Below, one piece after another: positions 2,336 to 50,985 of a stretch of DNA of 64,000 bases. The notes below the pieces were generated by a model that searched no databases, was not told the DNA's origin, and saw only the letters and a list, made by a program, of their open reading frames with translations. This DNA is from Desulfobacteraceae bacterium (GTDB lineage: Bacteria; Desulfobacterota; Desulfobacteria; Desulfobacterales; Desulfosarcinaceae): assembly GCA_027068085.1 (NCBI GenBank), contig JAMOUQ010000022.1, positions 23,907 to 87,906 of the forward strand. The letters run 5' to 3'. The position numbers and the translations under genes are program-made. Positions within the stretch are counted from its first letter, which is position 1. Each line of letters starts with the position of its first letter.

Positions 2336-2349
2336 GTCAAGAAATTGAC
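2336..2349. promoter_or_regulatory. FleQ-box-like palindrome GTCAAGAAATTGAC (candidate enhancer/UAS)
   Basis: Perfect GTCAA-N4-TTGAC palindrome centred about 84 bp upstream of the GG of the sigma54 promoter at 2426. Confidence 0.45.
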
Positions 2350-2425
2350 CGCAGGGTATGCTTCCGCCTGTCGGCCTGTGTAATTAACCCGAAGGAATAA
2401 CAGATGATTTTCAGTTTTCAGGAAT

Positions 2426-2441
2426 TGGTATATGCCTTGCA
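2426..2441 (+). promoter_or_regulatory. sigma54 (-24/-12) promoter of the sugar-nucleotide/glycosyltransferase operon
   Basis: TGGTATATGCCTTGCA matches TGGCACG-N4-TTGCW with exact GG-N10-GC spacing. It lies 86 nt upstream of the ATG at 2527, in a 272-bp intergenic gap. Confidence 0.65.
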
Positions 2442-2526
2442 AGCCTGTCATGGACAGAAGGAAAGCTGAAATCTGTCTGCCGGCAAGCAGGGTGACGGCA
2501 CGGGCAGCTCAGGCCAGGGCGGGAAT

Positions 2527-3306
2527 ATGGTTAAAGGCACGCATCACGGGAAGCAAAAACGTATCAGGACAGGCAGTCTCCGGGCGGTGATCCTGGCAGG
2601 GGGGCTGGGAACCAGGCTGAGGCCGGTTGTCAGCCATGTGCCCAAGACAATGGCCCCGGTGGGACAAAGGCCCTTTTTGTCCTACCTGCTGGACTGGCTC
2701 CAGGACCAGGGCATACGAAGGGTATTGCTTTGCACCGGGTATCTGGGAGAGCAGATCGAAGCTTGCTACGGAAGCGGCTACGGCCGGATCAGCCTTTCCT
2801 ACTGCAGGGAAGAAAAACCGATGGGGACAGGCGGAGCTTTGGCGCTGGCAAGTGGGCTGATCGATTCCGCCCACTTGCTGGTCTTGAACGGAGACTCTTT
2901 TTGCCAGGTGGACCTGGGGCATTTTCTGGAATGGCACCTGGGAAAAGGCGCCTGCGCTTCATTGGTCACTGTCCGCCGTCCGGACGCCGGGCGATACGGC
3001 AGGGTGAGTTTCAGCCGTTCCGGCAGGGTAACGGCCTTTGAAGAAAAACAGCAACAGAATATTCCCGGCTGGATAAACGGCGGAATCTACCTTTTCCGGA
3101 GCCGGGCCATCGCGGAACTTGAAAGAAAGGGGCCGTTTTCCATCGAGTACGACCTGCTGCCTTCGTTGTTGGCAAGAGGGCTTTTCGCCTTCCGGAGCCG
3201 GGGTGGCTTCATAGACATCGGCACACCGGAAGACTACCGCCGGGCAGGAGAGTTCTTTGCCGCACGGCGGCACGCGGAGTCTGCCGGGCAGGTTTCAATC
3301 TGTTGA
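2527..3306 (+). CDS. sugar-1-phosphate nucleotidyltransferase (HddC-like heptose-1-phosphate guanylyltransferase candidate)
   Basis: 259 aa. N-terminal AVILAGGLGTRLRP pyrophosphorylase signature. Adjacent to a COG2605-type GHMP kinase, as in GDP-heptose loci. Confidence 0.75.
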   Translation: MVKGTHHGKQKRIRTGSLRAVILAGGLGTRLRPVVSHVPKTMAPVGQRPFLSYLLDWLQDQGIRRVLLCTGYLGEQIEACYGSGYGRISLSYCREEKPMGTGGALALASGLIDSAHLLVLNGDSFCQVDLGHFLEWHLGKGACASLVTVRRPDAGRYGRVSFSRSGRVTAFEEKQQQNIPGWINGGIYLFRSRAIAELERKGPFSIEYDLLPSLLARGLFAFRSRGGFIDIGTPEDYRRAGEFFAARRHAESAGQVSIC

Positions 3307-3319
3307 CTGGCCACGGGAT

Positions 3320-4315
3320 ATGATCATTTCAAAGACACCATACCGGATTTCTTTTTTCGGAGGCGGAACCGACTATCCGGCCTGGTACCGCAGGCACGGC
3401 GGAGCGGTTCTTTCCACCACCATCGACAAGTACTGCTATATCAGTTGCCGGGTGCTGCCCCGTTTTTTCGACCACAAGTACCGGGTGGTCTGGTCGCACA
3501 TCGAAAACGTTTCCAGCATAGGAGAAATCCTGCATCCTGCCGTCCGGGAGGGGCTGCGCTACCTGGGAGTCAACGGCGAGATGGGGCTTGAAATCCATCA
3601 CCAGGGAGATCTTCCGGCCCGGGCCGGCATGGGATCGAGCTCGGCCTTTGCCGTCGGGCTGATCAAGGTCATTACGGCCCTCAAGGGCCAGATGCTGGAC
3701 AAACACCAGCTGGCCCTGGCAGCCATAGATTTCGAGCAGAACGTGCTCAAGGAGAACGTGGGTTCCCAGGACCAGATGGCGACGGCCTACGGAGGCTTCA
3801 ATATCTTCCGCTTCAACCGGGACGGCTCCATTCAGGCAGAACCCATCACCCTGCCGCCGGAAAGGATCAGGGATCTGGAACGCCACCTGGTCATGCTTTA
3901 CACCGGCACCAGCCGCCTTTCTTCGGAGATTGCCGGAGAAATAATCTGTCAGGTGAGCCAACGCCAGGAGGTGTTGCAACAAATGAGACAGATGGTTGAC
4001 CGGGCGGTGGACATCCTGCGCGGCCCGGAATCCATAATCGAATTCGGCCGCCTGCTGGACCGCAGCTGGCACCTCAAACGGCAACTGGCCGATAAGGTAA
4101 GCAATCCGGCCATAGACCGCATCTACCGGAAAGCCCTGGAAAGCGGGGCCGTGGGAGGAAAGTTGCTGGGCGCCGGAGGTTCGGGGTTCATGATTTTCTT
4201 TGTTCCGCCTGAAAAAAGGATGCAGCTTCAGCAGGCCCTGGAAGGTTACCTCCAGGTGCCTTTCAGGTTCGAAAAACAGGGCGCAAGCCTTATTCACTAT
4301 TCCAATGATGACTGA
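3320..4315 (+). CDS. GHMP-family sugar kinase (HddA-like D-glycero-D-manno-heptose 7-phosphate kinase candidate)
   Basis: MIISKTPYRISFFGGGTDYP N-terminus and GHMP motif GDLPARAGMGSSSAF. The start is moved to the ATG at 3320 because the ORF-track start at 3257 overlaps the upstream gene. Confidence 0.75.
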   Translation: MIISKTPYRISFFGGGTDYPAWYRRHGGAVLSTTIDKYCYISCRVLPRFFDHKYRVVWSHIENVSSIGEILHPAVREGLRYLGVNGEMGLEIHHQGDLPARAGMGSSSAFAVGLIKVITALKGQMLDKHQLALAAIDFEQNVLKENVGSQDQMATAYGGFNIFRFNRDGSIQAEPITLPPERIRDLERHLVMLYTGTSRLSSEIAGEIICQVSQRQEVLQQMRQMVDRAVDILRGPESIIEFGRLLDRSWHLKRQLADKVSNPAIDRIYRKALESGAVGGKLLGAGGSGFMIFFVPPEKRMQLQQALEGYLQVPFRFEKQGASLIHYSNDD

Positions 4316-4321
4316 CAGGCA

Positions 4322-27000: not shown

Positions 27001-27054
27001 GAGGCTGAAAAATGTTCGGATGTCGGTTGCCCGTTGCGCCGTGAGCATTGCCAT
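24013..27054 (-). CDS. 1013-aa protein with two tandem TPR + GT9-like modules (paralog of 21053..24016)
   Basis: Same module grammar, twice: DLVITIDTAVAHLAGAMGKPVWVMLPRTCDWRW...SPWYPGMRLFRQ and DLIITVDTATAHLAGALARPVWVLLPYLPDWRW...SPWYPGMRLFRQ. Confidence 0.8.
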   Translation of the reverse strand: MAMLTAQRATDIRTFFSLRGRSARRQGDLKSARDWFCRAVKADPGHPAGWVALGNILRRLSKPRAAAKCLHRALELEPDSPAILANLGNAYKDTGILDRAEYFYRQALERKPQLAEVHCNLAMVLLALGRMQEGWIHYQWRLKFLPSGKDYPERHGLALWKGQPLDGRNILVYDEQGFGDIFLFARYLRLLASRGAGVVFETRRQVLELFSRQDYLLHVLDRDSDRPPEITCHWCSPLASLPLLLGTTMSNIPVPVPYIAAGPEKSAFWEKRLALLAGRKKPGEKPVKIGLFWQNTTGIDPSRSVGLDNLAPLGNLCSQLPAVFFGLQKKPSDSDRKHDWLVMLDQHLTDFDQTAAIIDNLDLVITIDTAVAHLAGAMGKPVWVMLPRTCDWRWFLERTDSPWYPGMRLFRQHKCLDWHPVVRQVTARLKEFIKNMTSPAPAESSGRTESRGEEDLRFARAVELAQKGFPDRAAAIYRRLAVSDPVSAPAACYNLGLLLLQEQKPSQAARWFRRALDLQPDLARAANNLGCALEAAGRMQESREAFVQALKIDPGFGEAAYNLGRICLRRGHDREAARALRLAVETRPGNHLAWNDLAVAYQRLGNLLKAREALRRAVSLKPDFARAYQNLGNVWLDCGEPDTAIDCHAKAIELAGPTADDYIRQAELCRQWLRLKKAREYLEKALEIDPRHAGAHTALAETCLLEGDFPPGWRHFRWRFRLPECRTHIYPHRLKSPRWQGQSLKGRTILAHCEQGYGDTVQFIRYLPRLKQMGARVIAEVHPPLVRLVAAMEAVDQVLALDPEKPCRLAVDYHVPLMDLPGVFNTRLETIPGHTPYLRPTPEATARWSGRLNCGKFKVGLVWQGGVFHRHNSRRNLDPEQLAPLLALKDISFHSLQKFPAGESAPPDIVGYDLTDLGPLLRDFDDTAAAICRLDLIITVDTATAHLAGALARPVWVLLPYLPDWRWLLQRIDSPWYPGMRLFRQLRPGQWDHPLALIRDQLEVMLRRRRLTA

Positions 27055-27147: not shown

Positions 27148-27163
27148 TGCAATCTTTGTGCCT
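27148..27163 (-). promoter_or_regulatory. sigma54 promoter for the 27054->21053 TPR-GT9 operon
   Basis: The minus strand reads AGGCACAAAGATTGCA (GGCAC-N5... TTGCA, exact GG-N10-GC spacing). It lies about 95 nt upstream of the ATG at 27054. Confidence 0.6.
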
Positions 27164-27227: not shown

Positions 27228-27241
27228 GTCAATTCTTTGTC
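27228..27241. promoter_or_regulatory. FleQ-box-like element GTCAATTCTTTGTC between divergent sigma54 promoters
   Basis: One mismatch to GTCAA-N4-TTGAC. Centred about 73 bp from the minus-strand promoter and about 97 bp from the plus-strand promoter. Confidence 0.4.
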
Positions 27242-27330: not shown

Positions 27331-27346
27331 TGGCGCGGCCCTTGCT
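27331..27346 (+). promoter_or_regulatory. sigma54 promoter for the 27434-30321 glycosyltransferase pair
   Basis: TGGCGCGGCCCTTGCT matches TGGCACG-N4-TTGCW with exact spacing. It lies 88 nt upstream of the ATG at 27434. Confidence 0.6.
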
Positions 27347-27433
27347 AACCAGTTTCTGGCAGGGACGCGTCCTGAAGCCCGGTTGCTTCAGGTCCTGTTT
27401 TGCCGGACAATCTCAACCCGGAGGGTAACCAGC

Positions 27434-28207
27434 ATGAGGCGCAGTTTCGTCATTCCGGTAATCGATTTTTCACCCCACAGCCCGTACGGCATCGAAACCC
27501 TGCTGGCCGACCTGGAGTCCATGCCCGGGGAGGTGATCTGCATCTTCAATTCAGGGGAAGTGTTTCAGAGGCTGGCCGGCCATCCGAGGATCGACAAGTT
27601 CTGTTACAACAAGCTCAACGCCGGGGTAAGCCGCTCCTGGAACATCGGAATCAACCTAAGCGAAGGTGACGCGGTCTATATTCTCAACTCCGACCTGCAC
27701 CTGGGGCCGTCGGCAGCCGATCAGCTGGAACATTACCTGTTCAGCCTGCCCAAGGCGGTGATAGTGGGTCCCCAGGGGTCACACCTGGATTTTAAAAAAC
27801 TCGAAGTGCGACGCTACTTTTCCAGGGGAACCTTCAGCGAGCCGGTGAAAACCCATGATGTCTCCGGGTTTTTCTTCTGCCTTCACCGCAGGCGCTTCCT
27901 GGATAACAAGCTCTGTTTCGATGTGCGCTACAGCCCCTGTTTCATGGAGGAATGGGACATGGCCCTCCAGGTGCTGGCCGCCGGTCTTGCCTGTTACGCG
28001 GTTCCGGTAACCGATTTCGAACATCACTGGGGGATTTCCGGCAGCAAAGAGAATTCGCCTGTCAACTATTTTGGCCGCACCGTTTACCGCAACGATATTC
28101 TGGCCGCCAACCGCGAGAAATTTCTGGCCAAATGGTTCGGCCGGCAGCAAAGAAAGCCCGGCGGCGTCTTTGACCGCAAGGAGGACAGATGCGCATCCTG
28201 TTTCTGA
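27434..28207 (+). CDS. GT2-like (GT-A fold) glycosyltransferase
   Basis: MRRSFVIPVIDFSPHSPYGIETLLADLES... and NAGVSRSWNIGINLSEGDAVYILNSDLHL. ATG at 27434 is preceded by GGAGGG (27420-27425). Confidence 0.6.
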   Translation: MRRSFVIPVIDFSPHSPYGIETLLADLESMPGEVICIFNSGEVFQRLAGHPRIDKFCYNKLNAGVSRSWNIGINLSEGDAVYILNSDLHLGPSAADQLEHYLFSLPKAVIVGPQGSHLDFKKLEVRRYFSRGTFSEPVKTHDVSGFFFCLHRRRFLDNKLCFDVRYSPCFMEEWDMALQVLAAGLACYAVPVTDFEHHWGISGSKENSPVNYFGRTVYRNDILAANREKFLAKWFGRQQRKPGGVFDRKEDRCASCF

Positions 28208-30321
28208 TCCATGAGTATCCAAACTACGTGCCCGACCTTTTGCTGCACGGCCTGCGCAAGATTTTGGGGCCTGAAGCGGTGGAATACCCGCGCAAGGACT
28301 GCCTTTACCGGGGGGTTATCGGCCTGGGTGTGTGCCCGCCGGACCAGCTTTGCCCGGGCTGGTTCCCTGACGACGGCGAAGCTGTCGACCGTTCCGATAT
28401 CGAGGCCAAGGTCAGGACCGGATACTTCGACCTGGTCATTGCCGACCAGCGCCTTGCACCCTGGCAGGACCGGCTTCTGGCAGACTGCGGTGCGGCCCTG
28501 GTGATCGTCGACGGCGAGGACCGGCCGGCCCCTGTTCCCGCCGGCGACTGGATCATCTGCCGCCGGGAGACAGATGGAAGCGACTTCAGCATACCCCTTC
28601 CCATGGCCCTGCCCGAGGAGGTCTTCAATATCATCGCCGGCTTCGATTCCGAACCCAAGCAATACAGCCTCGGCTTTCTGGGAAGCACCCACGACGGGCA
28701 AAGGCGGCAGATCGTTGAAAAACTTGCCCGCTGGTACCCTGACAGCCTCCTGGCGGCCACAGGCGTTCCCAGCCCGGAAGAGCCCAGACCGGAAGGCAGG
28801 CTGGCACGGGCGGACTACTACCGGATGCTGCAGCGCTGCAAGATGGTGCTCAGCCTTCCGGGGGCCGGATACGACACCTTTCGCTTCTGGGAAAATACCG
28901 CCTGTAACGCCCTGCACCTGGTGCAGCAGATGCCGCTTTTTATTCCCGACGATTTTGTATCCGGACGCCACGTGCTGCGCTTCGAGCAGCCGGAAAAACT
29001 GCGCCCTCACCTGGACGGGCTGCTGGCAGACCGGGAAGGTTGCCGGCAAATGATAAGCGAGCAGCGCTATCATCTTTACCGCCATCACCTGACTTCGGCC
29101 CGGGCCGCCTATTTCCTGGACAGGGTCAACCGGGCCCTGGGCAGACGGGTATTTCAGCCGGCCGGCGGACCGGTCCGGATACTGTCGGGGGGGCAGGCTG
29201 CCGCCGATCCGGCGGCCGGTGCCGGTGAGACCCCGGCAGCCAAAGACGAAGAATGCCTCTACCTGGGGCTTGTGCGGGGTGACAATTACGGTTGGGGTGT
29301 TTGCAGCGCAAAGCTGATCGAGGAACTGGGCCGTTTGCGCAAGGTCCATGTGTTGTCCGAAGAAGACGGATCGGCATCGGACCCAGATCTTGACGGCGAC
29401 CTTTTCCAGGCCCTGAAAAGCGTCGATTTTTTTCCCATGTTTTCCAAGGCAAGGGGAAGGCGCAATTTCGGGTACACCTTTTTCGAAAACGAGCTGACTG
29501 CCAATTCAATGCGTAACGCGCCGGCCTACGACCTTATCCTGGCCGGATCCACCTGGTGCCGGGACAGGCTGCTGGAAAAAGGAATAACCAACTGCGACGT
29601 TCTGCTCCAGGGCATCGATCCGGAAATCTTCTATCCTTCGGACGAACCGGCCAACAGGGATAGGTTTGTCATCTTTTCCGGCGGCAAGTTCGAACTGCGC
29701 AAGGGACAGGACCTGGTGCTGAAGGCCGTCAAGGTGCTGATGGACAAATATCCCGACGTCTTTCTGGTCACGTGCTGGTACAATCTCTGGCCTGAATCCC
29801 TGAAACTGATGGAATACTCCAAACATATAAATTTCAGGTACAGATCCGGCCTTTCCTGGCAAGAGCTGATGAACACCACCTGCGTGGAAAACGGGCTGGA
29901 TCCGGCCCGGGTGACTGTTCATGAACTTGTGCCCCATGACCGGTTGCGGCGCCTTTATCTCGACACCACCCTGGGCCTTTTCCCCAACCGCTGTGAAGGC
30001 GGAACCAACCTGGTCCTGATGGAATACATGGCCTGCGGCCGGCCGGTGATAGCATCTTTTACCAGCGGCCACAGGGACGTTGTCAATCAGGGCAACGCCC
30101 TGCTGCTGACCGAGCTTCAGGACTTTCTGGTGCGGATGGCAGACGGGAATCTGGTGGCCCGCTGGCAGGAAGCCGATTTTCACCAGCTGGTGGAGCACCT
30201 GGAGTACGCCTATCATAACCGGGACCAACTGGAAACCCTCGGCCGCCGGGCAGCCGGAGACATGGCCCGCCTGACCTGGGGGGCGAGCGCCCGCCGGCTT
30301 CTGGATATCCTTGCCGGATAA
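28189..30321 (+). CDS. 710-aa two-domain glycosyltransferase (N-terminal CgeB/exostosin-like domain + C-terminal GT1/GT4 domain)
   Basis: N-terminal half: YYRMLQRCKMVLSLPGAGYDTFRFWE. C-terminal half: RFVIFSGGKFELRKGQDLVL ... EGGTNLVLMEYMACGRPVIAS (GT-B, E-x7-E-like). AAGGAGGA lies before the ATG at 28189. Confidence 0.7.
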   Translation: MRILFLIHEYPNYVPDLLLHGLRKILGPEAVEYPRKDCLYRGVIGLGVCPPDQLCPGWFPDDGEAVDRSDIEAKVRTGYFDLVIADQRLAPWQDRLLADCGAALVIVDGEDRPAPVPAGDWIICRRETDGSDFSIPLPMALPEEVFNIIAGFDSEPKQYSLGFLGSTHDGQRRQIVEKLARWYPDSLLAATGVPSPEEPRPEGRLARADYYRMLQRCKMVLSLPGAGYDTFRFWENTACNALHLVQQMPLFIPDDFVSGRHVLRFEQPEKLRPHLDGLLADREGCRQMISEQRYHLYRHHLTSARAAYFLDRVNRALGRRVFQPAGGPVRILSGGQAAADPAAGAGETPAAKDEECLYLGLVRGDNYGWGVCSAKLIEELGRLRKVHVLSEEDGSASDPDLDGDLFQALKSVDFFPMFSKARGRRNFGYTFFENELTANSMRNAPAYDLILAGSTWCRDRLLEKGITNCDVLLQGIDPEIFYPSDEPANRDRFVIFSGGKFELRKGQDLVLKAVKVLMDKYPDVFLVTCWYNLWPESLKLMEYSKHINFRYRSGLSWQELMNTTCVENGLDPARVTVHELVPHDRLRRLYLDTTLGLFPNRCEGGTNLVLMEYMACGRPVIASFTSGHRDVVNQGNALLLTELQDFLVRMADGNLVARWQEADFHQLVEHLEYAYHNRDQLETLGRRAAGDMARLTWGASARRLLDILAG

Positions 30322-34392: not shown

Positions 34393-34770
34393 TCAGCTGG
34401 GGGAGCCACGCAAGCCGGCGGCAATGTTCTGGTTTATTCTGATGATGATGTCCAGTTTTTCAGGGGAGGGAAAGGCCATGGTGTCGAAAATGCGACGGTC
34501 GATGAAACGGCTCAGCTGGAGCAGGCCGAGACGGATCTGTTTGGGCAGGGGATGATCCTTGCGGCACAATTCCACCTGAAATATGCTCCATACGCGCTGG
34601 TTGTAACGCAGGGCGGAGTCGAGCATCTCCCTGCGCGCGGGAGAATCCCAGTTCTGCTGGACCTCCATCAGTTTCAAGGCGCCCTGGGTCAGGACCCGGG
34701 CTTCGGTCTCGCGCCCGGAACTTGTGTTCCTATCCACATTTTCGTAAGCTTTGACTGCGTTGCTTAGCAC
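34393..34770 (-). CDS. flaF: flagellin synthesis regulator FlaF
   Basis: 125 aa, colinear with Caulobacter FlaF as recalled: AY...GRETEARVL..., ALRYNQRVWSIF......LPKQIRLGLLQLSRFI, IIRINQNIAAGL. Confidence 0.9.
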   Translation of the reverse strand: MLSNAVKAYENVDRNTSSGRETEARVLTQGALKLMEVQQNWDSPARREMLDSALRYNQRVWSIFQVELCRKDHPLPKQIRLGLLQLSRFIDRRIFDTMAFPSPEKLDIIIRINQNIAAGLRGSPS

Positions 34771-35149
34771 TTTCTATGGCCTCCCGTTCGTATGCGATCA
34801 GTTTTCGGGCTGTTTTCAGAGCCTTGTAATAATCCCGATGAACGATGTGCTCGCTGATGGCATCTATTATGCCGATGGCGGAAGGCGCGGCCCGGAGAAA
34901 GTCGCGCACCAGTCGCCAATAGAGATTATGGTGGGTGACGAGATTCTGCTCGTCGATATACATCAGCTGGACGACAAAGTAGATCCGGCGGGCAGGGGTG
35001 TCGGCCTCCTTTTCCCGCATTATGTTCTTTTCACGCAGGATCGGGACTTCGTTTTCCACTATCAGTTCGCAGCGGCCTCCGGCATTGGTGACAACCGCGC
35101 CACCAAGGATCATTCTTTCACCGGGTCTGAGTGTCAGTTTCAATGCCAT
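34730..35149 (-). CDS. flbT: flagellin translational regulator FlbT
   Basis: MALKLTLRPGERMILGGAVVTNAGGRCELIVENEVPILREKNIMREKEADTPARRIYFVVQLMYID... closely parallels Caulobacter FlbT. Start is set at the ATG at 35149; the ORF-track N-terminal extension is rejected. Confidence 0.9.
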   Translation of the reverse strand: MALKLTLRPGERMILGGAVVTNAGGRCELIVENEVPILREKNIMREKEADTPARRIYFVVQLMYIDEQNLVTHHNLYWRLVRDFLRAAPSAIGIIDAISEHIVHRDYYKALKTARKLIAYEREAIESAKQRSQSLRKCG

Positions 35150-35190
35150 GGCCCAAGTGTCTCCCCGTGTTAGCAGAACGGTTTCTTCCC

Positions 35191-35206
35191 TGCATGTTCC
35201 GTGCCC
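35191..35206 (-). promoter_or_regulatory. sigma54 promoter for flbT-flaF
   Basis: The minus strand reads GGGCACGGAACATGCA (GGCACG-N4-ATGCA, exact spacing). It lies between the stop of the 215-aa gene and the flbT ATG. Confidence 0.6.
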
Positions 35207-35214
35207 GGAGATTT

Positions 35215-35862
35215 CTAAATTCCGGACGCTATGGCCGCGGCCTTTTCCGACAGGACCCTGCGGCTTTCGGCAACCTTGCCGCGGGCGTTTTTGACAGCTT
35301 CCAGAGACTGTTCCAGACGGCCATCCGGGATCTGTCGCGGAAGCGGATCGATACCAAGCCAGCGGGCAGGATCGCGGCAATCTTCTGCCTTAAGGACATG
35401 ATCCTGCCGGCGGCCTTCAGGGATCGGGCCGGTCTCGATCACGTCTTTTTCCGGAGGTATCTCAAGCTTTTTCACCAGGCGCCACAATGCGTTGAATTGT
35501 TTCACAAGATCCAGCTGCTGGCGGCTTTCCGGAGGAAAAGGAGGATACTGTTTTACGAAGCCTTCAACCAGGGACTGCATCTTTCCCAGATAATCATCGA
35601 TGGCTTCCAGTGCCTGGTCGGACTTGCGGATTGACTGTGCAAGCTCCTGGAACCTGGTTTTGTCCTTTTCCAGGCGGGCAAAATCACCACCTTCCACCAC
35701 AACCTTTATTTCCCGGGGGTTCGGCGCCTGCTTGCCGGCCTGGCGGGACGAAATTTCCGGCCGCTGCCCCTGTTTGTGTCCCAAAGGCTCACGGTTGACC
35801 ATTGGCGAGTGGTCGACGCCGGTTATTGCCTTGAGGTGGGGTGGAATCTTTTCCATTTCCAT
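35215..35862 (-). CDS. hypothetical protein (215 aa) between flagellin and flbT
   Basis: Uninterrupted ORF in the locus orientation (MEMEKIPPHLKAITG...KQYPPFPPESRQQLDLVKQFNALW...). I recognise no family. There is no strong SD. Confidence 0.5.
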   Translation of the reverse strand: MEMEKIPPHLKAITGVDHSPMVNREPLGHKQGQRPEISSRQAGKQAPNPREIKVVVEGGDFARLEKDKTRFQELAQSIRKSDQALEAIDDYLGKMQSLVEGFVKQYPPFPPESRQQLDLVKQFNALWRLVKKLEIPPEKDVIETGPIPEGRRQDHVLKAEDCRDPARWLGIDPLPRQIPDGRLEQSLEAVKNARGKVAESRRVLSEKAAAIASGI

Positions 35863-35887
35863 CGCGGATCGCCTTGTTCATGGAATC

Positions 35888-35916
35888 GGTGGCAGGAGCC
35901 TGACGCCCCTGCCACC
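35888..35916 (-). terminator. stem-loop downstream of the flagellin gene (possible partial terminator)
   Basis: GGTGGCAGG-(11 nt)-CCTGCCACC, a perfect 9-bp stem about 40 nt after the flagellin stop. There is no U-tract. Confidence 0.35.
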
Positions 35917-35956
35917 GCGTTATTGCTCATGATCCGTGCGTCTGGCCGTCAAACTG

Positions 35957-36805
35957 CTAGAACAGCCGGAGCACTGACTGGGCTGCCTGGGAAGCCAGGC
36001 TCAGGGAAGTTGTACCCAGGGCCTGACGTGTCTGCAGCATCAGCATGTTGGCGCCTTCTTCGTTCATGTCGGCGTTGGTCAGGTTGGCGGCACCGTCTTC
36101 CAGGGTGTTGATCATGCCGGCCGTGAAATCCTGACGAATGTTGATGGTGCTCAAGTGGGTCGACAGCTTCTGGGCCTCGGTGCGCAGGGCCGACCGGGCG
36201 TTGTCCAGCTTGGTGATGGCCGAGTTGATTTCGGCCTTGTCAGCGGTTCCGCCGTCGCTTACCCAGGCATTGGTGCCGTGGGTGGAAAGGCTGAGGGTGG
36301 CGCCCAGGGCCGATGCGTCGAATCCGGTGATGGTCAGGGACGAATCGCCGGTCTCGTCGAACTTGATTTCATGGGTTACCGAAGTTCCATCCAGCAGGTT
36401 GACGCCCTTGTATCCGGAGTCGGCAGCCAGGAAATCGATCTGACACAACACTTCTTTGTACTGGTTGTAAAGAGTGTTGATTTCCGAAGTGGTGGAGCCT
36501 GAAAGAGCCGAGCTTGCCAGGGACTTGGCCGAGGCGATCAGGGCGGTGATGGCTTCGACGCCCTCGTTGGCAGCCGTAACCAGTTGAATGGATTCAGCCA
36601 TTTCGTCTTTACGTGAAGCCAGGTCCTCTGCCCTCTGGCGATGGCCCAGAGCCGTGAAATAGTTTACCGGGTCGTCGATCGCGTTACGGACCCTCAGGCC
36701 GGTGGCCAGGCGGTTCTGGGTCAGCTCCATCATCTTCTGGGTGTTCTGCAAGCTGAAAAGATTTTTCCGCATGCCGGATGTCAGGGTGATTTTGTCGAGT
36801 GCCAT
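35957..36805 (-). CDS. flagellin (short, alphaproteobacterial-type, 282 aa)
   Basis: N-terminus ITLTSGMRKNLFSLQNTQKMMELTQNRLATGLRVRNAIDDPVNYFTA and C-terminus NMLMLQTRQALGTTSLSLASQAAQSVLRLF. Ser/Thr-rich central part. AAGGAG SD lies 8 nt before the ATG. Confidence 0.92.
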   Translation of the reverse strand: MALDKITLTSGMRKNLFSLQNTQKMMELTQNRLATGLRVRNAIDDPVNYFTALGHRQRAEDLASRKDEMAESIQLVTAANEGVEAITALIASAKSLASSALSGSTTSEINTLYNQYKEVLCQIDFLAADSGYKGVNLLDGTSVTHEIKFDETGDSSLTITGFDASALGATLSLSTHGTNAWVSDGGTADKAEINSAITKLDNARSALRTEAQKLSTHLSTINIRQDFTAGMINTLEDGAANLTNADMNEEGANMLMLQTRQALGTTSLSLASQAAQSVLRLF

Positions 36806-37061: not shown

Positions 37062-37096
37062 TTGCAAAATGCAAAGACCGTGTTGCGATTTGCAAA
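37062..37096. promoter_or_regulatory. two TTGC-N5-GCAA inverted-repeat boxes spaced 21 bp apart
   Basis: TTGCAAAATGCAAA (37062-37075) and TTGCGATTTGCAAA (37083-37096). A third copy lies at 37261. Confidence 0.4.
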
Positions 37097-37260: not shown

Positions 37261-37274
37261 TTGCAAATTGCAAA
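37261..37274. promoter_or_regulatory. third TTGC-N5-GCAA box
   Basis: TTGCAAATTGCAAA, about 143 bp upstream of the sigma54 promoter at 37404. Confidence 0.4.
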
Positions 37275-37403: not shown

Positions 37404-37419
37404 CGGCACAACAATTGCT
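37404..37419 (+). promoter_or_regulatory. sigma54 promoter of the first EBP gene
   Basis: CGGCACAACAATTGCT (GGCAC-N5... TTGCT, exact spacing), 62 nt upstream of the TTG start at 37482. Confidence 0.65.
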
Positions 37420-37481: not shown

Positions 37482-38531
37482 TTGTCTGCTTTGACTGCTT
37501 CCAACGCGGCCCAAGACAGTTGTCTGTCCGGGGAAGAAAAAGGCAGGTACGCCGACAGGGCTCTCAGGAACGTGATTGGGCAAAGTCCGGCCATGCAAAA
37601 GGTTTTCAGCCTGGTCCGGCGTGTTTCCAACAGCGATTCCACCATCCTGATAAACGGTGAGACAGGCACCGGCAAAGGTGTGCTTGCCAAGGCGATCCAC
37701 AAGGCTTCATATCGCCGCAAGCGCCCCTTTGTGTCCATAAATTGCGGTGCAATTCCGGAGAACCTGCTCGAAAGCGAGCTTTTCGGTCATGTCAAGGGGG
37801 CCTTCACCGGTGCCACGGCGGCCAAAATCGGTAAGTTCGAGGCCGCCAACGGGGGTACGATCTTTCTGGACGAAATCGGTGACATGAGTCCGGACCTGCA
37901 GGTCAAGCTGCTCAAGGTGCTCGAAGAACAGGAATTTGAACCGGTGGGGGCCTGCAAGTCGGTAAAGGTCGATGTGCGGATAATCGCAGCCACCCACCGG
38001 GATCTTGAGGAGGAGGTCCAGAAAGGACAGTTCCGGGAAGATTTATTCTACCGCCTGTACGTGATACCGATCCGGCTTCCGGCCCTGCGCCAGAGAAAGG
38101 AAGACATCCCCTTGCTGGCAGAACATTTCCTCGGCAGACTGAACGATTCCAAGGCCACCGATATCCGGGGAATCAGGCAAGAGGCCATGGAGATATTACA
38201 AAATCACGACTGGCCCGGTAACGTCCGCGAACTTGCCAATTTGCTGGAAAGATTGGCGGTACTTAAGGGTGAGGGCCATATAGAAGCCGGCGACCTGCCG
38301 GACAAGATGATTAACGGCAGCATCAGGACCGGACTGCCCCTGCCGGACTGCGATATCGGAGAAGAGGGAATATCGCTGAGCACGGCCGTAAGTGAATTTG
38401 AAAAAAGCCTCATATATAAATCGCTTGAAAAAACCGACTGGGTAAAAAACAAAGCGGCCAAGCTGCTGAAAGTCAAAAGAACCACCCTGGTGGAGAAGAT
38501 CAAGCGCTATGATCTAAAAAAGTGCGCTTAA
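37482..38531 (+). CDS. sigma54-dependent transcriptional activator without a receiver/sensor domain (AAA+ + Fis-type HTH only)
   Basis: 349 aa. TTG start 5 nt after GGAGGGG. Walker A GETGTGKG, GAFTGA loop (HVKGAFTGA), C-terminal HTH KNKAAKLLKVKRTTLVEKIKRY. Only about 30 aa precede the AAA+ core. Confidence 0.85.
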   Translation: MSALTASNAAQDSCLSGEEKGRYADRALRNVIGQSPAMQKVFSLVRRVSNSDSTILINGETGTGKGVLAKAIHKASYRRKRPFVSINCGAIPENLLESELFGHVKGAFTGATAAKIGKFEAANGGTIFLDEIGDMSPDLQVKLLKVLEEQEFEPVGACKSVKVDVRIIAATHRDLEEEVQKGQFREDLFYRLYVIPIRLPALRQRKEDIPLLAEHFLGRLNDSKATDIRGIRQEAMEILQNHDWPGNVRELANLLERLAVLKGEGHIEAGDLPDKMINGSIRTGLPLPDCDIGEEGISLSTAVSEFEKSLIYKSLEKTDWVKNKAAKLLKVKRTTLVEKIKRYDLKKCA

Positions 38532-38578
38532 AACGGGCGGCCCCGGTATGCGGTTTTCCAAAAACGATTAAGGCGTCG

Positions 38579-39262
38579 ATGTCGCAGAAAGAACACAGTT
38601 TTCCGGAGATAGGAAAATCGGCCGGCTCACCCGCGGAGGCCGGAGGAGACGGTGGCAGGTTCCGTCCGCTGTTTGCGGGCGCTGTTACCGATGGCGGCAG
38701 AAGTGAAAATTGCGGTCGGGCCGATGAAAACGATGCCGAAAACGGACATGCAGGCTCGGTCAGGGAGGCCAGAAAGAAGGGTATGGATCAGGGCCGCCGG
38801 GCCGGCATCCTGGATGCTCATACCAGGTGCGCCGGAGAACTGATCGAGCTGCTTGAAATCCTGCTCGCGGCGGCGGAGCAATATCAAAACCGTAAAAAAG
38901 AGCTGCTGGCATCATCCGGCCAATGGATTCTGACTCTGGCGGAAGCCATATGCCGGAAAGTGATCGACAACGGTTTTGAACAGGATGCCGGTCTGCTGGA
39001 ACGATCCCTGGGGCGTTGGGTCGCATCCGGGATCAGAGATCGCCTGCCTTTCGGAGCGGCCGACAGCGATGCCCTCCAGGTTCTGCTTTCCGCGGGCGAG
39101 ATGCTGCTGCCCTGCGAGCAGGCAACGGCCGAGCGCCTTAAGTTGCGCCTCGATAAATTGAGCAACCTGGCCGATGATCAGATGCGGCCCGATGCCGATC
39201 GGCAGGCGGCTTCGATTGCGGAACTGGTCCGCGAGATACTGCCCAAACCAGAGCCTTCCTGA
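38579..39262 (+). CDS. hypothetical protein with FliH/YscL-like N-terminal segment
   Basis: EARKKGMDQGRRAGILDAH...ELLASSGQWILTLAEAICRKVI resembles the FliH E-A-x-x-K-G-x-x-x-G region plus the following helix. The start is uncertain (ATG 38579 or GTG 38522). Confidence 0.45.
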   Translation: MSQKEHSFPEIGKSAGSPAEAGGDGGRFRPLFAGAVTDGGRSENCGRADENDAENGHAGSVREARKKGMDQGRRAGILDAHTRCAGELIELLEILLAAAEQYQNRKKELLASSGQWILTLAEAICRKVIDNGFEQDAGLLERSLGRWVASGIRDRLPFGAADSDALQVLLSAGEMLLPCEQATAERLKLRLDKLSNLADDQMRPDADRQAASIAELVREILPKPEPS

Positions 39263-39270: not shown

Positions 39271-39284
39271 GTCAAGAAACTGAC
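39271..39284. promoter_or_regulatory. FleQ-box-like element GTCAAGAAACTGAC
   Basis: One mismatch to GTCAA-N4-TTGAC. Centred about 116 bp upstream of the sigma54 promoter at 39393. Confidence 0.4.
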
Positions 39285-39392: not shown

Positions 39393-39408
39393 TGGCATAA
39401 TTATTGCC
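39393..39408 (+). promoter_or_regulatory. sigma54 promoter of the second EBP gene
   Basis: TGGCATAATTATTGCC (exact GG-N10-GC spacing), 76 nt upstream of the ATG at 39484. Confidence 0.65.
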
Positions 39409-39483: not shown

Positions 39484-40887
39484 ATGAACCCGGATACGAT
39501 ACTGCTGATTGATGATGACCGCGAAGCTGCCACGGCAATCGGGGCCGGCCTTGACGGCAGATCGATAAGAATCCGACATCGTTCAGGCCCTGCTTTCGAT
39601 CCCGCCATGCTGCCGGGCTGCAGCGCGGTCGTAATGAACGAAGAATCCCTGGACGACCCTGCGGCTGCGGTGCGAACGATCACGGCCGGCGCTGCCGGCA
39701 TACCATTGATAGTATACAGCCGGCGGCCAAAAGTCGAAAGCGCCGTAAAGATGCTCAAGGCCGGCGCCATGGATTATCTTGGCCTGACGGCCGGCGTGCC
39801 GGCAATCTGTATGGCCATTGCCGGCTTGCTCGATCATTCCAGGTCGCCGAGCGCTGCCGGCAGGACCGGCGGTCCAAGTCCGGTCGAGCCCCTTACCCGG
39901 GACGAGGCGATGCGCCGTTTGCTCAGACAGGCCCGCCAGGTGGCTTCCACCGATGCCACCGTTGTTATCCAGGGTGAAAGCGGAACCGGCAAGGAAGTGC
40001 TGGCCAGGTACATTCACAACTGCGGAAACAGAGCGGCCGGGCCGTTTGTGGCCGTAAATTGTGCCGCCCTGCCTGACCAGTTGGCCGAAAGTGAGCTTTT
40101 CGGTTACGAAAAAGGGGCCTTCACAGGGGCGCTGCGGCGCAGGCGGGGCAAATTCGAACAGGCCGACGGCGGCACTTTGCTCCTGGACGAAATCAGCGAG
40201 ATGCCGCTTTTCATGCAGGCCAAGCTTTTAAGGGCTTTGCAGGAAAAGGAAATCGACCGTATCGGCGGGTTCTCACCGGTTCCGGTGGATGTAAGGATTA
40301 TCGCCACCACCAATCGGAACCTGGAAGAAGCGGTCGCCGGCTGCCGGATGCGCAAAGATCTTTATTATCGCCTGAAGGTTATCGTATTCAGCCTTCCGCC
40401 TTTGAGCAGGCGCCGCCGGGACATCGGTTTGCTGGCATCCCGCTTTTTGGAGACGATGAACCGGCGTCACCGGAAAGAAATTAAGGGGTTTTCGGAAGAT
40501 GCGCTCGAAAAGCTGCAGCGTTACAGCTGGCCGGGCAATGTGCGCGAGCTTGAAAACGCTATCGAGAGGGCGGTGCTGCTCGACCGGGATTGCCTGCTGA
40601 CATCGGAAGACATTCTGCTTGAAGGTGAAGAGGTATTGACGACAGTTCCTGAATCCGGCGCCGGCAAAACGGAGTTGAAGGCCGGTATGACCGTGGAAGA
40701 AGCCGAAAGAGCCCTGATAATGAAGACCCTTGAACATGTCAATCAGAACCGTACGCGGGCCGCCCGGATGCTTGGAATCAGTATCCGCACCCTGCGCAAC
40801 AAAATAAACGCTTACCGCAATGCGAATCCCGGACAGTCGAACAGGGTCGAAAAGCCCGTGCACGGGGCCGGCGCCGGATCGTGGTAG
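39484..40887 (+). CDS. sigma54-dependent activator with degenerate receiver domain (FleQ-like architecture)
   Basis: 467 aa. REC-like N-terminus (ILLIDDD...) with Asn where the phospho-acceptor Asp is expected (AVVMNEE) and no conserved Lys (MDYLGLT). AAA+ core GESGTGKE and YEKGAFTGA. C-terminal HTH RTRAARMLGISIRTLRNKI. Confidence 0.88.
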   Translation: MNPDTILLIDDDREAATAIGAGLDGRSIRIRHRSGPAFDPAMLPGCSAVVMNEESLDDPAAAVRTITAGAAGIPLIVYSRRPKVESAVKMLKAGAMDYLGLTAGVPAICMAIAGLLDHSRSPSAAGRTGGPSPVEPLTRDEAMRRLLRQARQVASTDATVVIQGESGTGKEVLARYIHNCGNRAAGPFVAVNCAALPDQLAESELFGYEKGAFTGALRRRRGKFEQADGGTLLLDEISEMPLFMQAKLLRALQEKEIDRIGGFSPVPVDVRIIATTNRNLEEAVAGCRMRKDLYYRLKVIVFSLPPLSRRRRDIGLLASRFLETMNRRHRKEIKGFSEDALEKLQRYSWPGNVRELENAIERAVLLDRDCLLTSEDILLEGEEVLTTVPESGAGKTELKAGMTVEEAERALIMKTLEHVNQNRTRAARMLGISIRTLRNKINAYRNANPGQSNRVEKPVHGAGAGSW

Positions 40888-40975
40888 AGGCCGACTCGGC
40901 GATAAGGCAGGGCCTTGAGGTGCGGGTCGGCCGGAGAAAATTGCCGGGTCCATGGCGGCAAATTTTTCCCGGAGT

Positions 40976-40989
40976 GTCGGCCATTTGAC
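40976..40989. promoter_or_regulatory. weak FleQ-box-like element GTCGGCCATTTGAC
   Basis: Two mismatches to GTCAA-N4-TTGAC. Centred about 93 bp upstream of the flgB sigma54 promoter. Confidence 0.3.
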
Positions 40990-41074: not shown

Positions 41075-41090
41075 TGGTATGTAATTTGCT
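41075..41090 (+). promoter_or_regulatory. sigma54 promoter of the flgB operon
   Basis: TGGTATGTAATTTGCT (exact spacing), 28 nt upstream of the flgB ATG. AGGGAG SD follows. Confidence 0.7.
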
Positions 41091-47008: not shown

Positions 47009-47473
47009 ATGGCTGGATTCAAGTACGAACCGGTTTTGCGATACCGCAAGTTCCAGGAGGAAAAACTACAGCGGGAGCTTTCCGAAACCAACCGCAGTCT
47101 GGAGGCTGAAAAAGAGCTTCTCGGCAGCCTGGAAAACCAGTTGGAAGACGCCAGGCGCAAGTTCAGGCTGAGCGTCGGAAGGCCGGTAAACAGCCCTGTC
47201 CTGCTGATGCACAACCGTTTTCTGGAACGGCTGTGTATGAAAATTGCGCGCCAGCTCGAAAGAGTCGAAGCGGCCGAAGTCAAATGCCGGCAAAAGCGCG
47301 CCCAGGTGGTGGAAGCCCTGAAAAACCGCAAGAGTCTTGAAAAGGTGAAAGAAAATTTCCTGATACGGCAACGGGCGTTGCAGAAAAAGCTTCAGGGCAA
47401 GTTCATGGACGAAATAGGAGTCAACAAATACATACGCAGACAATCAGACGGGGAAGACGAATGCAGCCAATGA
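47009..47473 (+). CDS. fliJ: flagellar export chaperone FliJ
   Basis: Coiled-coil protein FKYEPVLRYRKFQEEKLQRELSE after fliI. ATG at 47009 follows GGGGGAG; the ORF-track TTG at 47000 is too close to the SD. Confidence 0.8.
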   Translation: MAGFKYEPVLRYRKFQEEKLQRELSETNRSLEAEKELLGSLENQLEDARRKFRLSVGRPVNSPVLLMHNRFLERLCMKIARQLERVEAAEVKCRQKRAQVVEALKNRKSLEKVKENFLIRQRALQKKLQGKFMDEIGVNKYIRRQSDGEDECSQ

Positions 47474-48843: not shown

Positions 48844-48876
48844 GCCCGGCGGCAGTCCGGAAGGGAGGTTTTCATC

Positions 48877-49545
48877 ATGAGTATTACCGGTTTGGAGTCT
48901 ATTCCATCCAAGGCCGCGGCTGTGGCTGATCCCAAGCAGAAAAGCATGGGGAAAAACGATTTCCTGAAAATGCTTGTGGCCCAGCTTCAATCCCAGGACC
49001 CGCTCAATCCGATGGACAGCACCGGCTTCACCGCTCAGCTGGCCCAGTTCAGCAGCCTGGAACAGTTGCAGAATATCGATGCCAGCCTCAGCGCCCTAAA
49101 GTCTGCCCAGAAGGTGTCGACAAACGCCAAGGCCGTGGATTTCATCGGCCGGGAAATTACGGCCGTTGGCGATCATTTTCTGCTGGAAAGCGGCCGGGAC
49201 CCGGTTTTGGCCTACCGCCTGGACCAGGAGGCGGACTCCGTATACATGAAAATCTATGACGCCGATGGCAACTTCGTGGCGGATCTCGAGCTGGGAGCCG
49301 AGCCGGCCGGTAACCATACCGCCACTTGGGACGGCAGGGATTTACAGGGACGCAGAATGCCGGCCGGCAAATATTCCTTCCAGGTCATGGCGGTGGACCG
49401 GGAGGGATCGGCCGTTTCCAGCCATACATTTACTTCCGGAAAGGTCAGCGGGGTGGATTTCAAGGACGGCAAGGCCTACCTGCTGGTTGACGGACGGCAG
49501 ATAGGGCTGGGAGAAATCGTGCGGGTGAAAGAACATCAGCCGTGA
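48877..49545 (+). CDS. flgD: flagellar hook assembly (capping) protein FlgD
   Basis: 222 aa; GKNDFLKMLVAQLQSQDPLNPMDSTGFTAQLAQFSSLEQL. Confidence 0.92.
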   Translation: MSITGLESIPSKAAAVADPKQKSMGKNDFLKMLVAQLQSQDPLNPMDSTGFTAQLAQFSSLEQLQNIDASLSALKSAQKVSTNAKAVDFIGREITAVGDHFLLESGRDPVLAYRLDQEADSVYMKIYDADGNFVADLELGAEPAGNHTATWDGRDLQGRRMPAGKYSFQVMAVDREGSAVSSHTFTSGKVSGVDFKDGKAYLLVDGRQIGLGEIVRVKEHQP

Positions 49546-49602
49546 TATCGGATACCGGATCATTTACGAAGCAATAAAGAATAACAAAGAAAGGGGTATA
49601 TC

Positions 49603-50823
49603 ATGATAGGATCATTGTATTCAGGCATTTCAGGCTTGAAGGCCAACACGAGCGCCATGGCGGTAATAGGGGACAATATCGCCAATGTCGAAACAACCGG
49701 TTTCAAGGCCTCCAAGGTGGCGTTCGCCAATGTTTTCAATGCCACCCTCGGCCAGAGCCGACTCCAGATCGGACGGGGTGTCACCATGTCGGGCACCAGC
49801 TCGAACTGGAACGCCGGTACTTTGCAGAACACGGAAAATGTCACCGATCTGGCGATCAACGGCAAGGGCATGTTCATCGTGCGGGACGCCAATGATAACG
49901 CCCAGTATTACACCCGTGCCGGCAAGTTCGAATTCGACCGCAGTCGGAGGCTGGTGACCCCGGACGGACTGGTGGTGCAGGGCTATGAGCTGGATTCGTC
50001 CGGGGCACTGGGATCGTTCGGCAACATAACCCTGCCGTCAGGCATGAACCAGCCCCAGGCAACCGACACCCTGACCATGAACCTGAACCTGGATGCCAGC
50101 GCTTCCAACGGTGACACGTACGACACCACGATTACAGTGTACGATTCCCTGGGCAACGCCGTAGACCTTAGCTTCAATTTCACCAAGACCTCCAGCGGCT
50201 GGGATTGGTATGTGACTTCATCGGAAGGATCGGCGACTCCGTCGTCGTCTTCGCCCTACAGCCTGGCCTTCACCACTTCCGGGGCGCTCGATCCTGCCAA
50301 CAGTACTCCGGCATCGTCCAATCCCACCATTTCCGTAACCGGCCTGTCGGGAGCCGACCTGTCCATAACCTGGGACTATCTCGACGGCACGGCCACCGAC
50401 GGAAGCATTACCGGGTACGCCGGTGATTCGGTCAAAACCGCCCAGACCCAGAACGGCTATCCCACCGGAATGCTCCAGGGGGTTGCGGTCGATGACGACG
50501 GAATTTTCACCGCGCTGTACTCTAACGGCACCATGATGCCGTTCGCCAGGATAGCCCTGGCTGATTTTGCCAATTATTCCGGCCTTTCAAAGCAGGGAAG
50601 CAACCTCTACACGTCTTCCCTGATTTCCGGCCAGGCGGTTATCTCCCCGCCTAACACGGCCGGGGTGGGAGGTATAGCGGCCAATGCGCTGGAAATGTCG
50701 AATGTCGACCTGGCCTCGGAATTCGTGGAGCTGATAACCACACAGAGGGCATTTCAGGCCAACAGCAAGGTCATCACCACCAGCGACGAAGTGCTGTCCG
50801 ACCTGATCAATATCAAGCGCTGA
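49603..50823 (+). CDS. flgE: flagellar hook protein FlgE
   Basis: 406 aa; N-terminus SLYSGISGLKANTSAMAVIGDNIANVETTGFK and C-terminus TTQRAFQANSKVITTSDEVLSDLINIKR. Confidence 0.92.
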   Translation: MIGSLYSGISGLKANTSAMAVIGDNIANVETTGFKASKVAFANVFNATLGQSRLQIGRGVTMSGTSSNWNAGTLQNTENVTDLAINGKGMFIVRDANDNAQYYTRAGKFEFDRSRRLVTPDGLVVQGYELDSSGALGSFGNITLPSGMNQPQATDTLTMNLNLDASASNGDTYDTTITVYDSLGNAVDLSFNFTKTSSGWDWYVTSSEGSATPSSSSPYSLAFTTSGALDPANSTPASSNPTISVTGLSGADLSITWDYLDGTATDGSITGYAGDSVKTAQTQNGYPTGMLQGVAVDDDGIFTALYSNGTMMPFARIALADFANYSGLSKQGSNLYTSSLISGQAVISPPNTAGVGGIAANALEMSNVDLASEFVELITTQRAFQANSKVITTSDEVLSDLINIKR

Positions 50824-50862
50824 TGGCATTGCATAGAGCCTGTCGCGTTGCGCTGCATTCTT

Positions 50863-50907
50863 CCGTTGTGACTGCGGTCTTGCCCAACCGGGCCGCAGTC
50901 ACAACGG
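50863..50907 (+). terminator. strong stem-loop after flgE (terminator or mRNA 3' stabiliser)
   Basis: Perfect 15-bp inverted repeat CCGTTGTGACTGCGG / CCGCAGTCACAACGG with a 15-nt loop, 40 nt after the flgE stop. There is no immediate U-tract. Confidence 0.35.
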
Positions 50908-50971
50908 GATGCGCGACGCCCCGGCCCCCCGTCTTTTGGCTACGCCGTCCCGTTCAAAGCCCCAACCCATT

Positions 50972-50985
50972 GTCAAGCCTTTGAC
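50972..50985. promoter_or_regulatory. FleQ-box-like palindrome GTCAAGCCTTTGAC
   Basis: Perfect GTCAA-N4-TTGAC, centred about 136 bp upstream of the motA sigma54 promoter. An extra TTGAC half-site lies at 50999-51003. Confidence 0.45.

Follow-up and report, generated by a model that had tools for sequence, protein, structure and literature searches.

The window, the whole 64,000-nucleotide stretch of DNA analysed here, is part of a 91.6-kb metagenome-assembly contig (ENA) of a Desulfobacterales bacterium from a hydrothermal vent. It opens with a sugar-nucleotide and glycosyltransferase region (~200-34200), followed by flaF/flbT-like genes and a short flagellin gene; downstream lie two adjacent sigma-54 activator genes (starting at 37482 and 39484) and then the flagellar genes from flgB to flhG and fliA. 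No species representative has a FliI protein more than 74% identical to the one encoded here; the closest relatives are Desulfobacteraceae, Desulfatitalea, and Desulfosarcina. We investigated a palindrome of this region, GTCAA-N4-TTGAC (Box A), found at five intergenic sites upstream of -24/-12 promoters, and its relation to the two activators, EBP1 (gene ebp1, 37482-38531) and EBP2 (gene ebp2, 39484-40887). Elements of a second palindromic type, GGCA-N5-TGCC, are called Box B. The features are listed in Table 1.

Table 1. Box A sites, sigma-54 promoters, and regulatory genes in the window (HTH, helix-turn-helix; TPR, tetratricopeptide repeat; distance, from the box centre to the GG of the promoter).
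Feature	Position	Strand	Sequence or evidence	Context	Distance (bp)
Box A site 1	2336-2349		GTCAAGAAATTGAC (cGTCAAGAAATTGACc), perfect, spacer GAAA	Upstream of the sugar-nucleotide/glycosyltransferase operon starting at 2527	84.5
Promoter	2426-2441	+	TGGTATATGCCTTGCA, TGGTAT-N5-TTGCA	Operon at 2527 (nucleotidyl transferase, Pfam PF00483)	
Promoter	27148-27163	-	AGGCACAAAGATTGCA, AGGCAC-N5-TTGCA	TPR/GT9 gene ending at 27054, minus strand	
Box A site 2	27228-27241		GTCAATTCTTTGTC, one mismatch, spacer TTCT	Common to two divergent sigma-54 promoters	72.5 to 27148-27163 (-); 97.5 to 27331-27346 (+)
Promoter	27331-27346	+	TGGCGCGGCCCTTGCT, TGGCGC-N5-TTGCT	Glycosyltransferase pair 27383-30321	
EBP1	37482-38531	+	AAA+ with GAFTGA, lid, Fis-type HTH	349-amino-acid sigma-54 activator	
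Box A site 3	39271-39284		GTCAAGAAACTGAC (cGTCAAGAAACTGACa), one mismatch, spacer GAAA	Upstream of ebp2	116.5
Promoter	39393-39408	+	TGGCATAATTATTGCC, TGGCAT-N5-TTGCC	ebp2	
EBP2	39484-40887	+	NCBIfam, HTH	467-amino-acid FlbD-like sigma-54 activator, degenerate receiver	
Box B-like elements	40933-40945; 40957-40969		GGAGAAAATTGCC; GGCAAATTTTTCC	Upstream of flgB, 24 bp apart	
Box A site 4	40976-40989		GTCGGCCATTTGAC (tGTCGGCCATTTGACc), two mismatches, GTCG half-site, spacer GCCA	Upstream of flgB	93.5
Promoter	41075-41090	+	TGGTATGTAATTTGCT, TGGTAT-N5-TTGCT	flgB-flgC-fliE-fliF...	
Box A site 5	50972-50985		GTCAAGCCTTTGAC (tGTCAAGCCTTTGACc), perfect, spacer GCCT	Upstream of the motA-motB-...-fliL-fliM-fliN-fliOP operon	136.5
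Promoter	51114-51129	+	TGGCACGGTACATGCT, TGGCAC-N5-ATGCT	motA	
FlhG/FleN-type MinD-like ATPase	62432-63436	+	NCBIfam MinD-family matches		

Scanning the window with the promoter pattern TGGCAC-N5-TTGCW returned eight intergenic sigma-54 promoter candidates, six of which, across five intergenic regions, have a box whose centre precedes the GG by 72.5-136.5 bp; the promoters 37404 (ebp1) and 34219 (minus strand, a TPR-glycosyltransferase gene) have none. An earlier note on this DNA had listed the same five sites, with the second between two divergent promoters and with distances of 73-136 bp, and in all of this it was right. It had also quoted the consensus of the Pseudomonas aeruginosa FleQ box, and GTCaNTAAAtTGAC is indeed the sequence given in PMC10723142 and attributed to Baraquet & Harwood 2016 in PMC6120874. 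Its central proposal, a FleQ-box-like enhancer at sigma-54 flagellar promoters, is borne out by the counts, by conservation at orthologous promoters, and by identity with the motifs of FleQ, FlrA, and the Desulfovibrio vulgaris protein DVU2894.

Chance expectations were obtained from dinucleotide-preserving shuffles. Perfect copies of Box A number two in the window (2336 and 50972) against 0.02 expected, so that the two perfect intergenic copies of the earlier note stand and its chance figure of 0.06 falls to 0.02; near-perfect copies (at most one mismatch) number nine against 1.14 expected, a count attained in 0 of 100 shuffles, and the core GTCA-N6-TGAC occurs five times against 0.62 expected. 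When the spacer was varied from 0 to 12 bp in the window, the 4-bp spacing alone was enriched (two perfect and nine near-perfect copies), all other spacings giving no perfect and 0-5 near-perfect copies, and the everted TTGAC-N4-GTCAA (the FNR/FixK format) has no occurrence in the window. Four of the nine near-perfect sites are intergenic, though intergenic DNA makes up ~6% of the window. The five others (3294, 6659, 11491, 55395, and 56471) lie within genes, as does an additional core match at 55745. None of these six has a suitably placed sigma-54 promoter-like site, and five of them lack the pyrimidine directly 5′ of the box that is present in all five intergenic sites; all six are treated as background.

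We then turned to relatives. A FliI scan of species-representative genomes yielded 80 loci, each of at most 21 kb, onto which the window proteins were mapped, and boxes were counted in the 29 flagellar loci of Desulfobacterales type (453 kb). Perfect boxes number 16 in these loci (0-1 when the spacing is changed) and near-perfect boxes 74 (8-37 when it is changed). A promoter match has a box 40-400 bp upstream of it for 15 of the 16 perfect boxes (P = 3e-14) and 40 of the 74 near-perfect ones (P = 2e-20), compared with 10% of random positions, and the median distance from box to promoter is 150 bp, which ties the box to sigma-54 promoters in the related loci.

The perfect boxes of the relatives occupy two orthologous positions, each ahead of a sigma-54 promoter match: the interval between the hook gene and motA/fliL and the region upstream of the second activator gene. 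At the first of these (flgE to motA/fliL), a perfect or near-perfect box is present in more than 15 related Desulfobacterales loci and also in loci of Syntrophales, Desulfobulbales, and Desulfuromonadales, and the promoters of the motA orthologues are of the type TGGCA(C/T)-N5-(A/C/G)TGCT. At the second, a box precedes the ebp2 orthologue in 17 examined related loci; L027 and L028, for instance, have GTCAAAGAACTGAC, and L019 and L029 have GTCAACACCTTGAC. A promoter of the TGGCATGCTTATTGCC type is conserved there in relatives. The GTCG variant of site 4 is likewise found at the flgB position of the closest relatives as GTCG-N6-TGAC (L001, GTCGATCATTTGAC; L004, GTCGATCCTATGAC; L005, GTCGGGCTTTTGAC), and the flgB promoter TGGTA(C/T)-N5-TTGCT is kept in nearly all Desulfobacterales relatives. 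In Nitrospirota-type loci the box is present as GTCA-N6-TGAC. When a metagenome was scanned with the opening gene of the sugar operon, the matches were at most 52% identical and lay outside a flagellar context, none of them in a context orthologous to that of site 1; these loci (373 kb) served as a background control.

Across 44 promoter-associated sites, each of the half-site bases G, T, C, A, and A is kept in 41-44 of the 44, the four spacer bases are free and often G or C, the 5′ flanking base is a pyrimidine in 41 of 44, and the 3′ flanking base is mostly A, giving yGTCAA-N4-tTGACa. The half-sites are thus kept by sequence rather than by pairing, which argues for a protein site and not an RNA hairpin. 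We strongly disfavour, as extremely unlikely, the explanation that the matches are chance or compositional effects, or small RNA hairpins or terminators. The five coding near-matches without a promoter nearby do show that some near-matches are background, and site 3 begins 9 bp past a stop codon; chance is nevertheless opposed by the shuffle, spacing, and background controls (unrelated metagenome loci hold one perfect and 13 near-perfect boxes in 373 kb), a hairpin by the lack of compensatory change at the half-sites, and a terminator by the 5-bp stem without a T-run, which would terminate poorly.

Which protein is likely to bind the box is suggested by the activators themselves. EBP1 matches Pfam Sigma54_activat (residues 31-197) and HTH_8 (303-343) and has only ~30 residues before the AAA+ domain, the receiver-like domain with which FleQ begins being absent. 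Its best solved relative in the PDB is FleQ (8p53_C, E = 1.8e-92), aligned over FleQ chain residues 133-483, that is, all but the receiver-like domain, and FleQ is also the second-best PDB match of the C-terminal HTH alone. The HTH sequences are LLKVKRTTLVEKIKRY in EBP1, RLRIRRTTLVEKMRKY in FleQ, and ILGIKRTTLIEKLKKK in DVU2894, and the recognition helices are KRTTLVEKIKRY, RRTTLVEKMRKY, and KRTTLIEKLKKK, respectively, with (K/R)RTTL(V/I)EK in common; the EBP1 orthologues in all relatives retain (K/N)RTTL(V/I)EKIK. In the published FleQ model, the GxC ends of the box would be recognised by the arginine pair that opens the RRTTLVEK helix (PMC10723142). Of the FleQ residues that contact cyclic di-GMP (c-di-GMP), namely R144, R185, N186, E330, and R334 (PMC10723142), R144, E330, and R334 are identical in the EBP1 alignment (chain numbering = native +2), and R185 and N186 are not. 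By its PDB match and recognition helix EBP1 is a protein of the FleQ/DVU2894 type, and it is the likely binder of Box A.

The earlier note had ascribed a FleQ-like architecture to the activator at 39484 and, by implication, the binding of the box, and this part is not supported. EBP2 has no match to the FleQ domain; its N-terminus matches Response_reg weakly and only in part (E = 0.0047), Caulobacter FlbD scores best among the NCBIfam families (401.8 bits, under the cutoff of 750), and its HTH (NRTRAARMLGISIRTLRNKI) is of the generic Fis/NtrC type (helix NRTxAAxxLGISxRTLRNK), with Fis and NtrC-type proteins among its matches and FleQ absent from them. The FleQ counterpart is, by sequence, the product of 37482 and not of 39484, and the regulator assignment should move accordingly. 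That EBP2 nevertheless binds Box A, autoregulates, and drives the whole regulon we consider unlikely. Such a role would fit the conserved box upstream of ebp2 in the window and in most relatives, the location of ebp2 directly upstream of flgB, and the autoregulation proposed for DVU2894; but FlbD, the closest named family, and DVU1063 of D. vulgaris use GGCA-N4/5-TGCC, the HTH of EBP2 is generic, and the FleQ/DVU2894 recognition helix is found in EBP1 only.

Gene arrangement in relatives bears on the same choice. In one clade (L018, L020-L024) an EBP1-type activator alone adjoins flgB, so that boxes occur there beside this activator without an adjacent EBP2; the box GTCAACGATATGAC is identical in L018, L020, L022, and L024 (GTCAACAATATGAC in L021) and stands ~106 bp ahead of the sigma-54 promoter of flgB. 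Of these five loci, L018 and L020 extend into the region past flgE, where neither showed a box. Among 43 near-complete loci, a box upstream of a sigma-54 promoter was found in 20 of the 22 with an RTTL(V/I/L)EK activator and in 3 of the 21 without one (Fisher P = 3.6e-7, for loci that are not phylogenetically independent). EBP2 is accordingly more likely a target of Box A than its binder, as judged from the proteins and the positions of the boxes.

The co-occurrence of box and FleQ-type HTH across lineages also speaks against an unrelated dimeric factor, such as a CRP/FNR-like protein or another HTH protein whose gene lies elsewhere, as the binder of the palindrome; such a factor would modulate the promoters, and the activators would recognise different sequences. 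Many dimeric regulators do bind palindromes of the 5-N4-5 format; sigma-54 promoters, however, require an enhancer-binding protein, the box lies at the typical distance of an enhancer, the FNR/FixK-type everted repeat is missing from the window, and the motif equals experimentally footprinted FleQ boxes. We regard such a factor as very unlikely.

The binding sites of known systems were compared. The FleQ box consists of the repeats GTCAAT and ATTGAC, two bases apart (PMC10723142), and the P. putida box is GTCAaAAAAtTGAC (PMC6120874). Box A shares with the P. aeruginosa box the 14-bp pseudopalindromic format and the arms GTCAA and TTGAC, site 1 differing from the consensus at position 6 only; EBP1 and FleQ are both flagellar sigma-54 activators and have the same RTTLVEK helix, and a FleN/FlhG-type ATPase is encoded in the cluster. 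Unlike FleQ, EBP1 lacks the FleQ/REC-like (receiver-like) N-terminal domain, the boxes here stand at classical enhancer distance whereas FleQ binds several flagellar promoters of Pseudomonas close by, and we saw no sign here of c-di-GMP control or repressor action.

The closest counterpart is DVU2894, described as a FlrA/FleQ-like activator without N-terminal domain (Kazakov et al. 2015, PMC4641369). Its predicted motif, yGTCA-N6-TGACr, was likened to the FlrA site upstream of flrBC in Vibrio cholerae (PMC4641369), and its sites, given in the supplement, include CGTCAATTCCTTGACC, CGTCATTGCCCTGACA ahead of the fliL-fliN-fliOPQ operon, and CGTCGCTTTCTTGACG, whose GTCG half-site is a counterpart of site 4 (PMC4641369). 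EBP1 shares with DVU2894 the missing N-terminal domain, the helix (KRTTLVEK here, KRTTLIEK there), the palindrome including its y/r flanks, and a predicted fliL-operon target, whose sigma-54 promoter follows the box by 100-400 bp. As activator type, helix, motif with flanks, and fliL target all match, the window shows a DVU2894-type system. In D. vulgaris, too, a second, FlbD-like activator (DVU1063) acts at the flgB-fliI operon. DVU2894 differs in having GAFTHA where EBP1 has GAFTGA; moreover, the activator genes are adjacent and beside flgB here, unlike in D. vulgaris, and the glycosylation operons would be additional targets. For V. cholerae the FlrA site is cited as GTCA-N6-TGGC (in PMC4641369); the likeness lies in a master sigma-54 activator whose GTCA-N6 palindrome stands ahead of the operon of the next-tier activator, a position equivalent to that of the ebp2 box, and the difference in the lack of a histidine kinase gene between the activator genes and in a degenerate EBP2 receiver, closer to FlbD than to FlrC. 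A literature search on FgrM in Geobacter, the matches of which were not looked at closely, gave nothing relevant to binding sites.

We read GTCAA-N4-TTGAC, extended to yGTCAA-N4-tTGACa, as the upstream activating sequence at which a flagellar activator of the FleQ/FlrA type acts, probably EBP1, with a probability of about 0.8. From the observed motif, its positions and conservation, and the protein similarities, we infer the following binding, activation, and regulatory order. A dimer of EBP1, a FleQ homologue that lost its receiver-like N-terminal domain, would set its two Fis-type HTHs (helix KRTTLVEK) on the GTCA and TGAC half-sites 70-140 bp upstream of -24/-12 promoters, and its AAA+ domains would oligomerise, loop the DNA to the sigma-54 holoenzyme through the GAFTGA loop, and open the promoter with ATP. 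The putative direct targets are ebp2 (39484) and the motA...fliL-fliP operon, and the flgB operon may be reached through the weaker GTCG-variant box beside a GGCA-N5-TGCC-type element. On window evidence alone, further targets would be the sugar-nucleotide operon (2527) and the divergent operons with TPR-glycosyltransferase genes (27148/27331), the related loci ending short of both. EBP1 lacks a sensory domain. The sigma-54-dependent synthesis of EBP1 itself probably sets its activity, perhaps together with an FlhG/FleN-type ATPase: FleN is the antiactivator of FleQ (PMC10723142), and by analogy the MinD-like ATPase in Table 1 is a candidate antiactivator of EBP1.

Several points weigh against this reading. 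Within the window alone the link between boxes and permissively called promoters is marginal (P = 0.048), so it is the cross-species test that bears the weight, and the related loci used there are not phylogenetically independent. Two of the c-di-GMP-contacting residues of FleQ are replaced in EBP1 (R185 by K and N186 by A), and the spacers of the boxes are not AT-rich, unlike the TAAA or AAAA of Pseudomonas. No box was found within 260 bp upstream of the ebp1 promoter (37404-37419), and none with up to three mismatches in the relevant 200 bp, whereas in Desulfovibrio the box precedes the regulator's own gene; here it precedes ebp2, a position that autoregulation by EBP2 would explain equally well. 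The motif of DVU2894 was itself predicted by computation (PMC4641369), and the sole public run found to contain the window sequence is of DNA from a hydrothermal-vent metagenome; no RNA run is listed.

The region upstream of ebp1 lacks a box in the Desulfobacterales relatives as well, and some Nitrospirota-type loci have one there. Upstream of the ebp1 promoter in the window stands a different palindrome, TTGC-N5-GCAA, in three copies (37062-37074, TTGCAAAATGCAA; 37083-37095, TTGCGATTTGCAA; 37261-37273, TTGCAAATTGCAA), and a TTGCAA-N-TTGCAA element precedes the ebp1 orthologue in nearly all Desulfobacterales relatives. TTGC-N5-GCAA looks like a third type of enhancer that controls the FleQ-like gene. 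In three related loci (L017, L025, and L026) a third activator is encoded just upstream of the ebp1 orthologue.

Box B occurs upstream of flgB as the two elements in Table 1. In the closest relatives a GGCAA-N3-TTGCC palindrome stands just upstream of the GTCG-N6-TGAC box of flgB, and GGCAA-N3-TTGCC is found at the flgB position in L002, L004, L005, L009, L028, and L029. Over the whole window Box B is not enriched (nine occurrences of GGCAA-N3-TTGCC against 5.2 expected, not significant), and the support for it comes from conservation upstream of flgB only. DNA affinity purification-chip (DAP-chip) of DVU1063 gave the motif GGCAxxxxTGCC, with the flgB-fliI operon of D. vulgaris as a target (Rajeev et al. 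2011, PMC3333781). Because its format matches the DVU1063 and Caulobacter ftr motifs and flgB-fliI is a DVU1063 target, we assign Box B at flgB to EBP2 as a proposed site, with moderate confidence. EBP2 and Box B resemble the FlbD/ftr and DVU1063 systems in the atypical receiver, the flgB-fliI target, and the GGCA-N5-TGCC-like elements, although the HTH and helix of EBP2 differ from those of DVU1063; that system relates to Box B and not to GTCAA-N4-TTGAC.

Together, the three palindromes suggest a kinase-free flagellar cascade that uses sigma-54 only, a scheme we offer tentatively and give somewhat less than even chances. In it TTGC-N5-GCAA would switch on the REC-less FleQ; this FleQ would, by way of GTCAA-N4-TTGAC, switch on the FlbD-like activator, the motor/export operon, and a ~25-kb flagellin-glycosylation island; and the FlbD-like activator would, by way of GGCA-N5-TGCC, drive flgB-fliI. 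If this cascade is true, protein-glycosylation genes would be direct early-class targets of a FleQ-type regulator, and RTTLVEK helix and GTCA-N6-TGAC would together form a recognition code that Pseudomonadota, Desulfobacterota, and Nitrospirota have kept. Should the glycosylation operons be true targets, the modification of flagellin and early flagellar assembly would be regulated together.

The motif and the REC-less type of regulator are already described for Desulfovibrionales, and current understanding is not overturned. The comparison adds independent support for a Desulfovibrio motif so far only predicted, suggests conservation of both the FleQ recognition helix and its DNA box between phyla, including cases in which the receiver-like domain is lost, and provides a testable wiring diagram of flagellar gene control for an uncultured hydrothermal-vent lineage of sulfate reducers.

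An open reading frame (ORF) at 38522-39262 (227-246 amino acids) overlaps the end of ebp1 and gives weak FliH-like matches (best E = 2.4e-5) and no Pfam match. We considered it as a conserved partner of EBP1 and rejected this, as counterparts were found in L004 and L005 only and Desulfosarcina-type loci have no gene there. In more distant loci of Thermodesulfobacteriota and Nitrospirota (L030, L031, L033, L034, L035, L039, L043, L060, and L070) an ORF of 475-890 amino acids lies between the ebp1 and ebp2 orthologues. A histidine kinase was considered for this position; by eye the ORFs are TPR-rich with a signal-peptide-like start, those of 550-890 amino acids resembling secreted proteins more than kinases, and the analogy to flrABC was dropped. 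Several distant loci with an intervening ORF have a GTCA-N6-TGAC box directly after ebp1, and in some a box lies upstream of ebp1.

The longest ORF for motA, from TTG 51094, would include the sigma-54 promoter of that gene; the start is almost certainly GTG 51196, preceded by AGGAG, with the product MDLATFLGLL..., a MotA of 255 amino acids. Just past the hook gene and ~70 bp upstream of site 5, a 15-bp inverted repeat without a T-run (GTTGTGACTGCGGTC...GGCCGCAGTCACAAC, 50865-50905) may be a terminator or an RNA-stability hairpin between the two operons. On the minus strand beside the activator genes (34730-36805) lie an FlbT-like gene (NCBIfam FlbT, E = 1e-38) and the gene of a short flagellin of 282 amino acids and of the alphaproteobacterial kind, a Caulobacter-style flagellin control in a Desulfobacterales bacterium.

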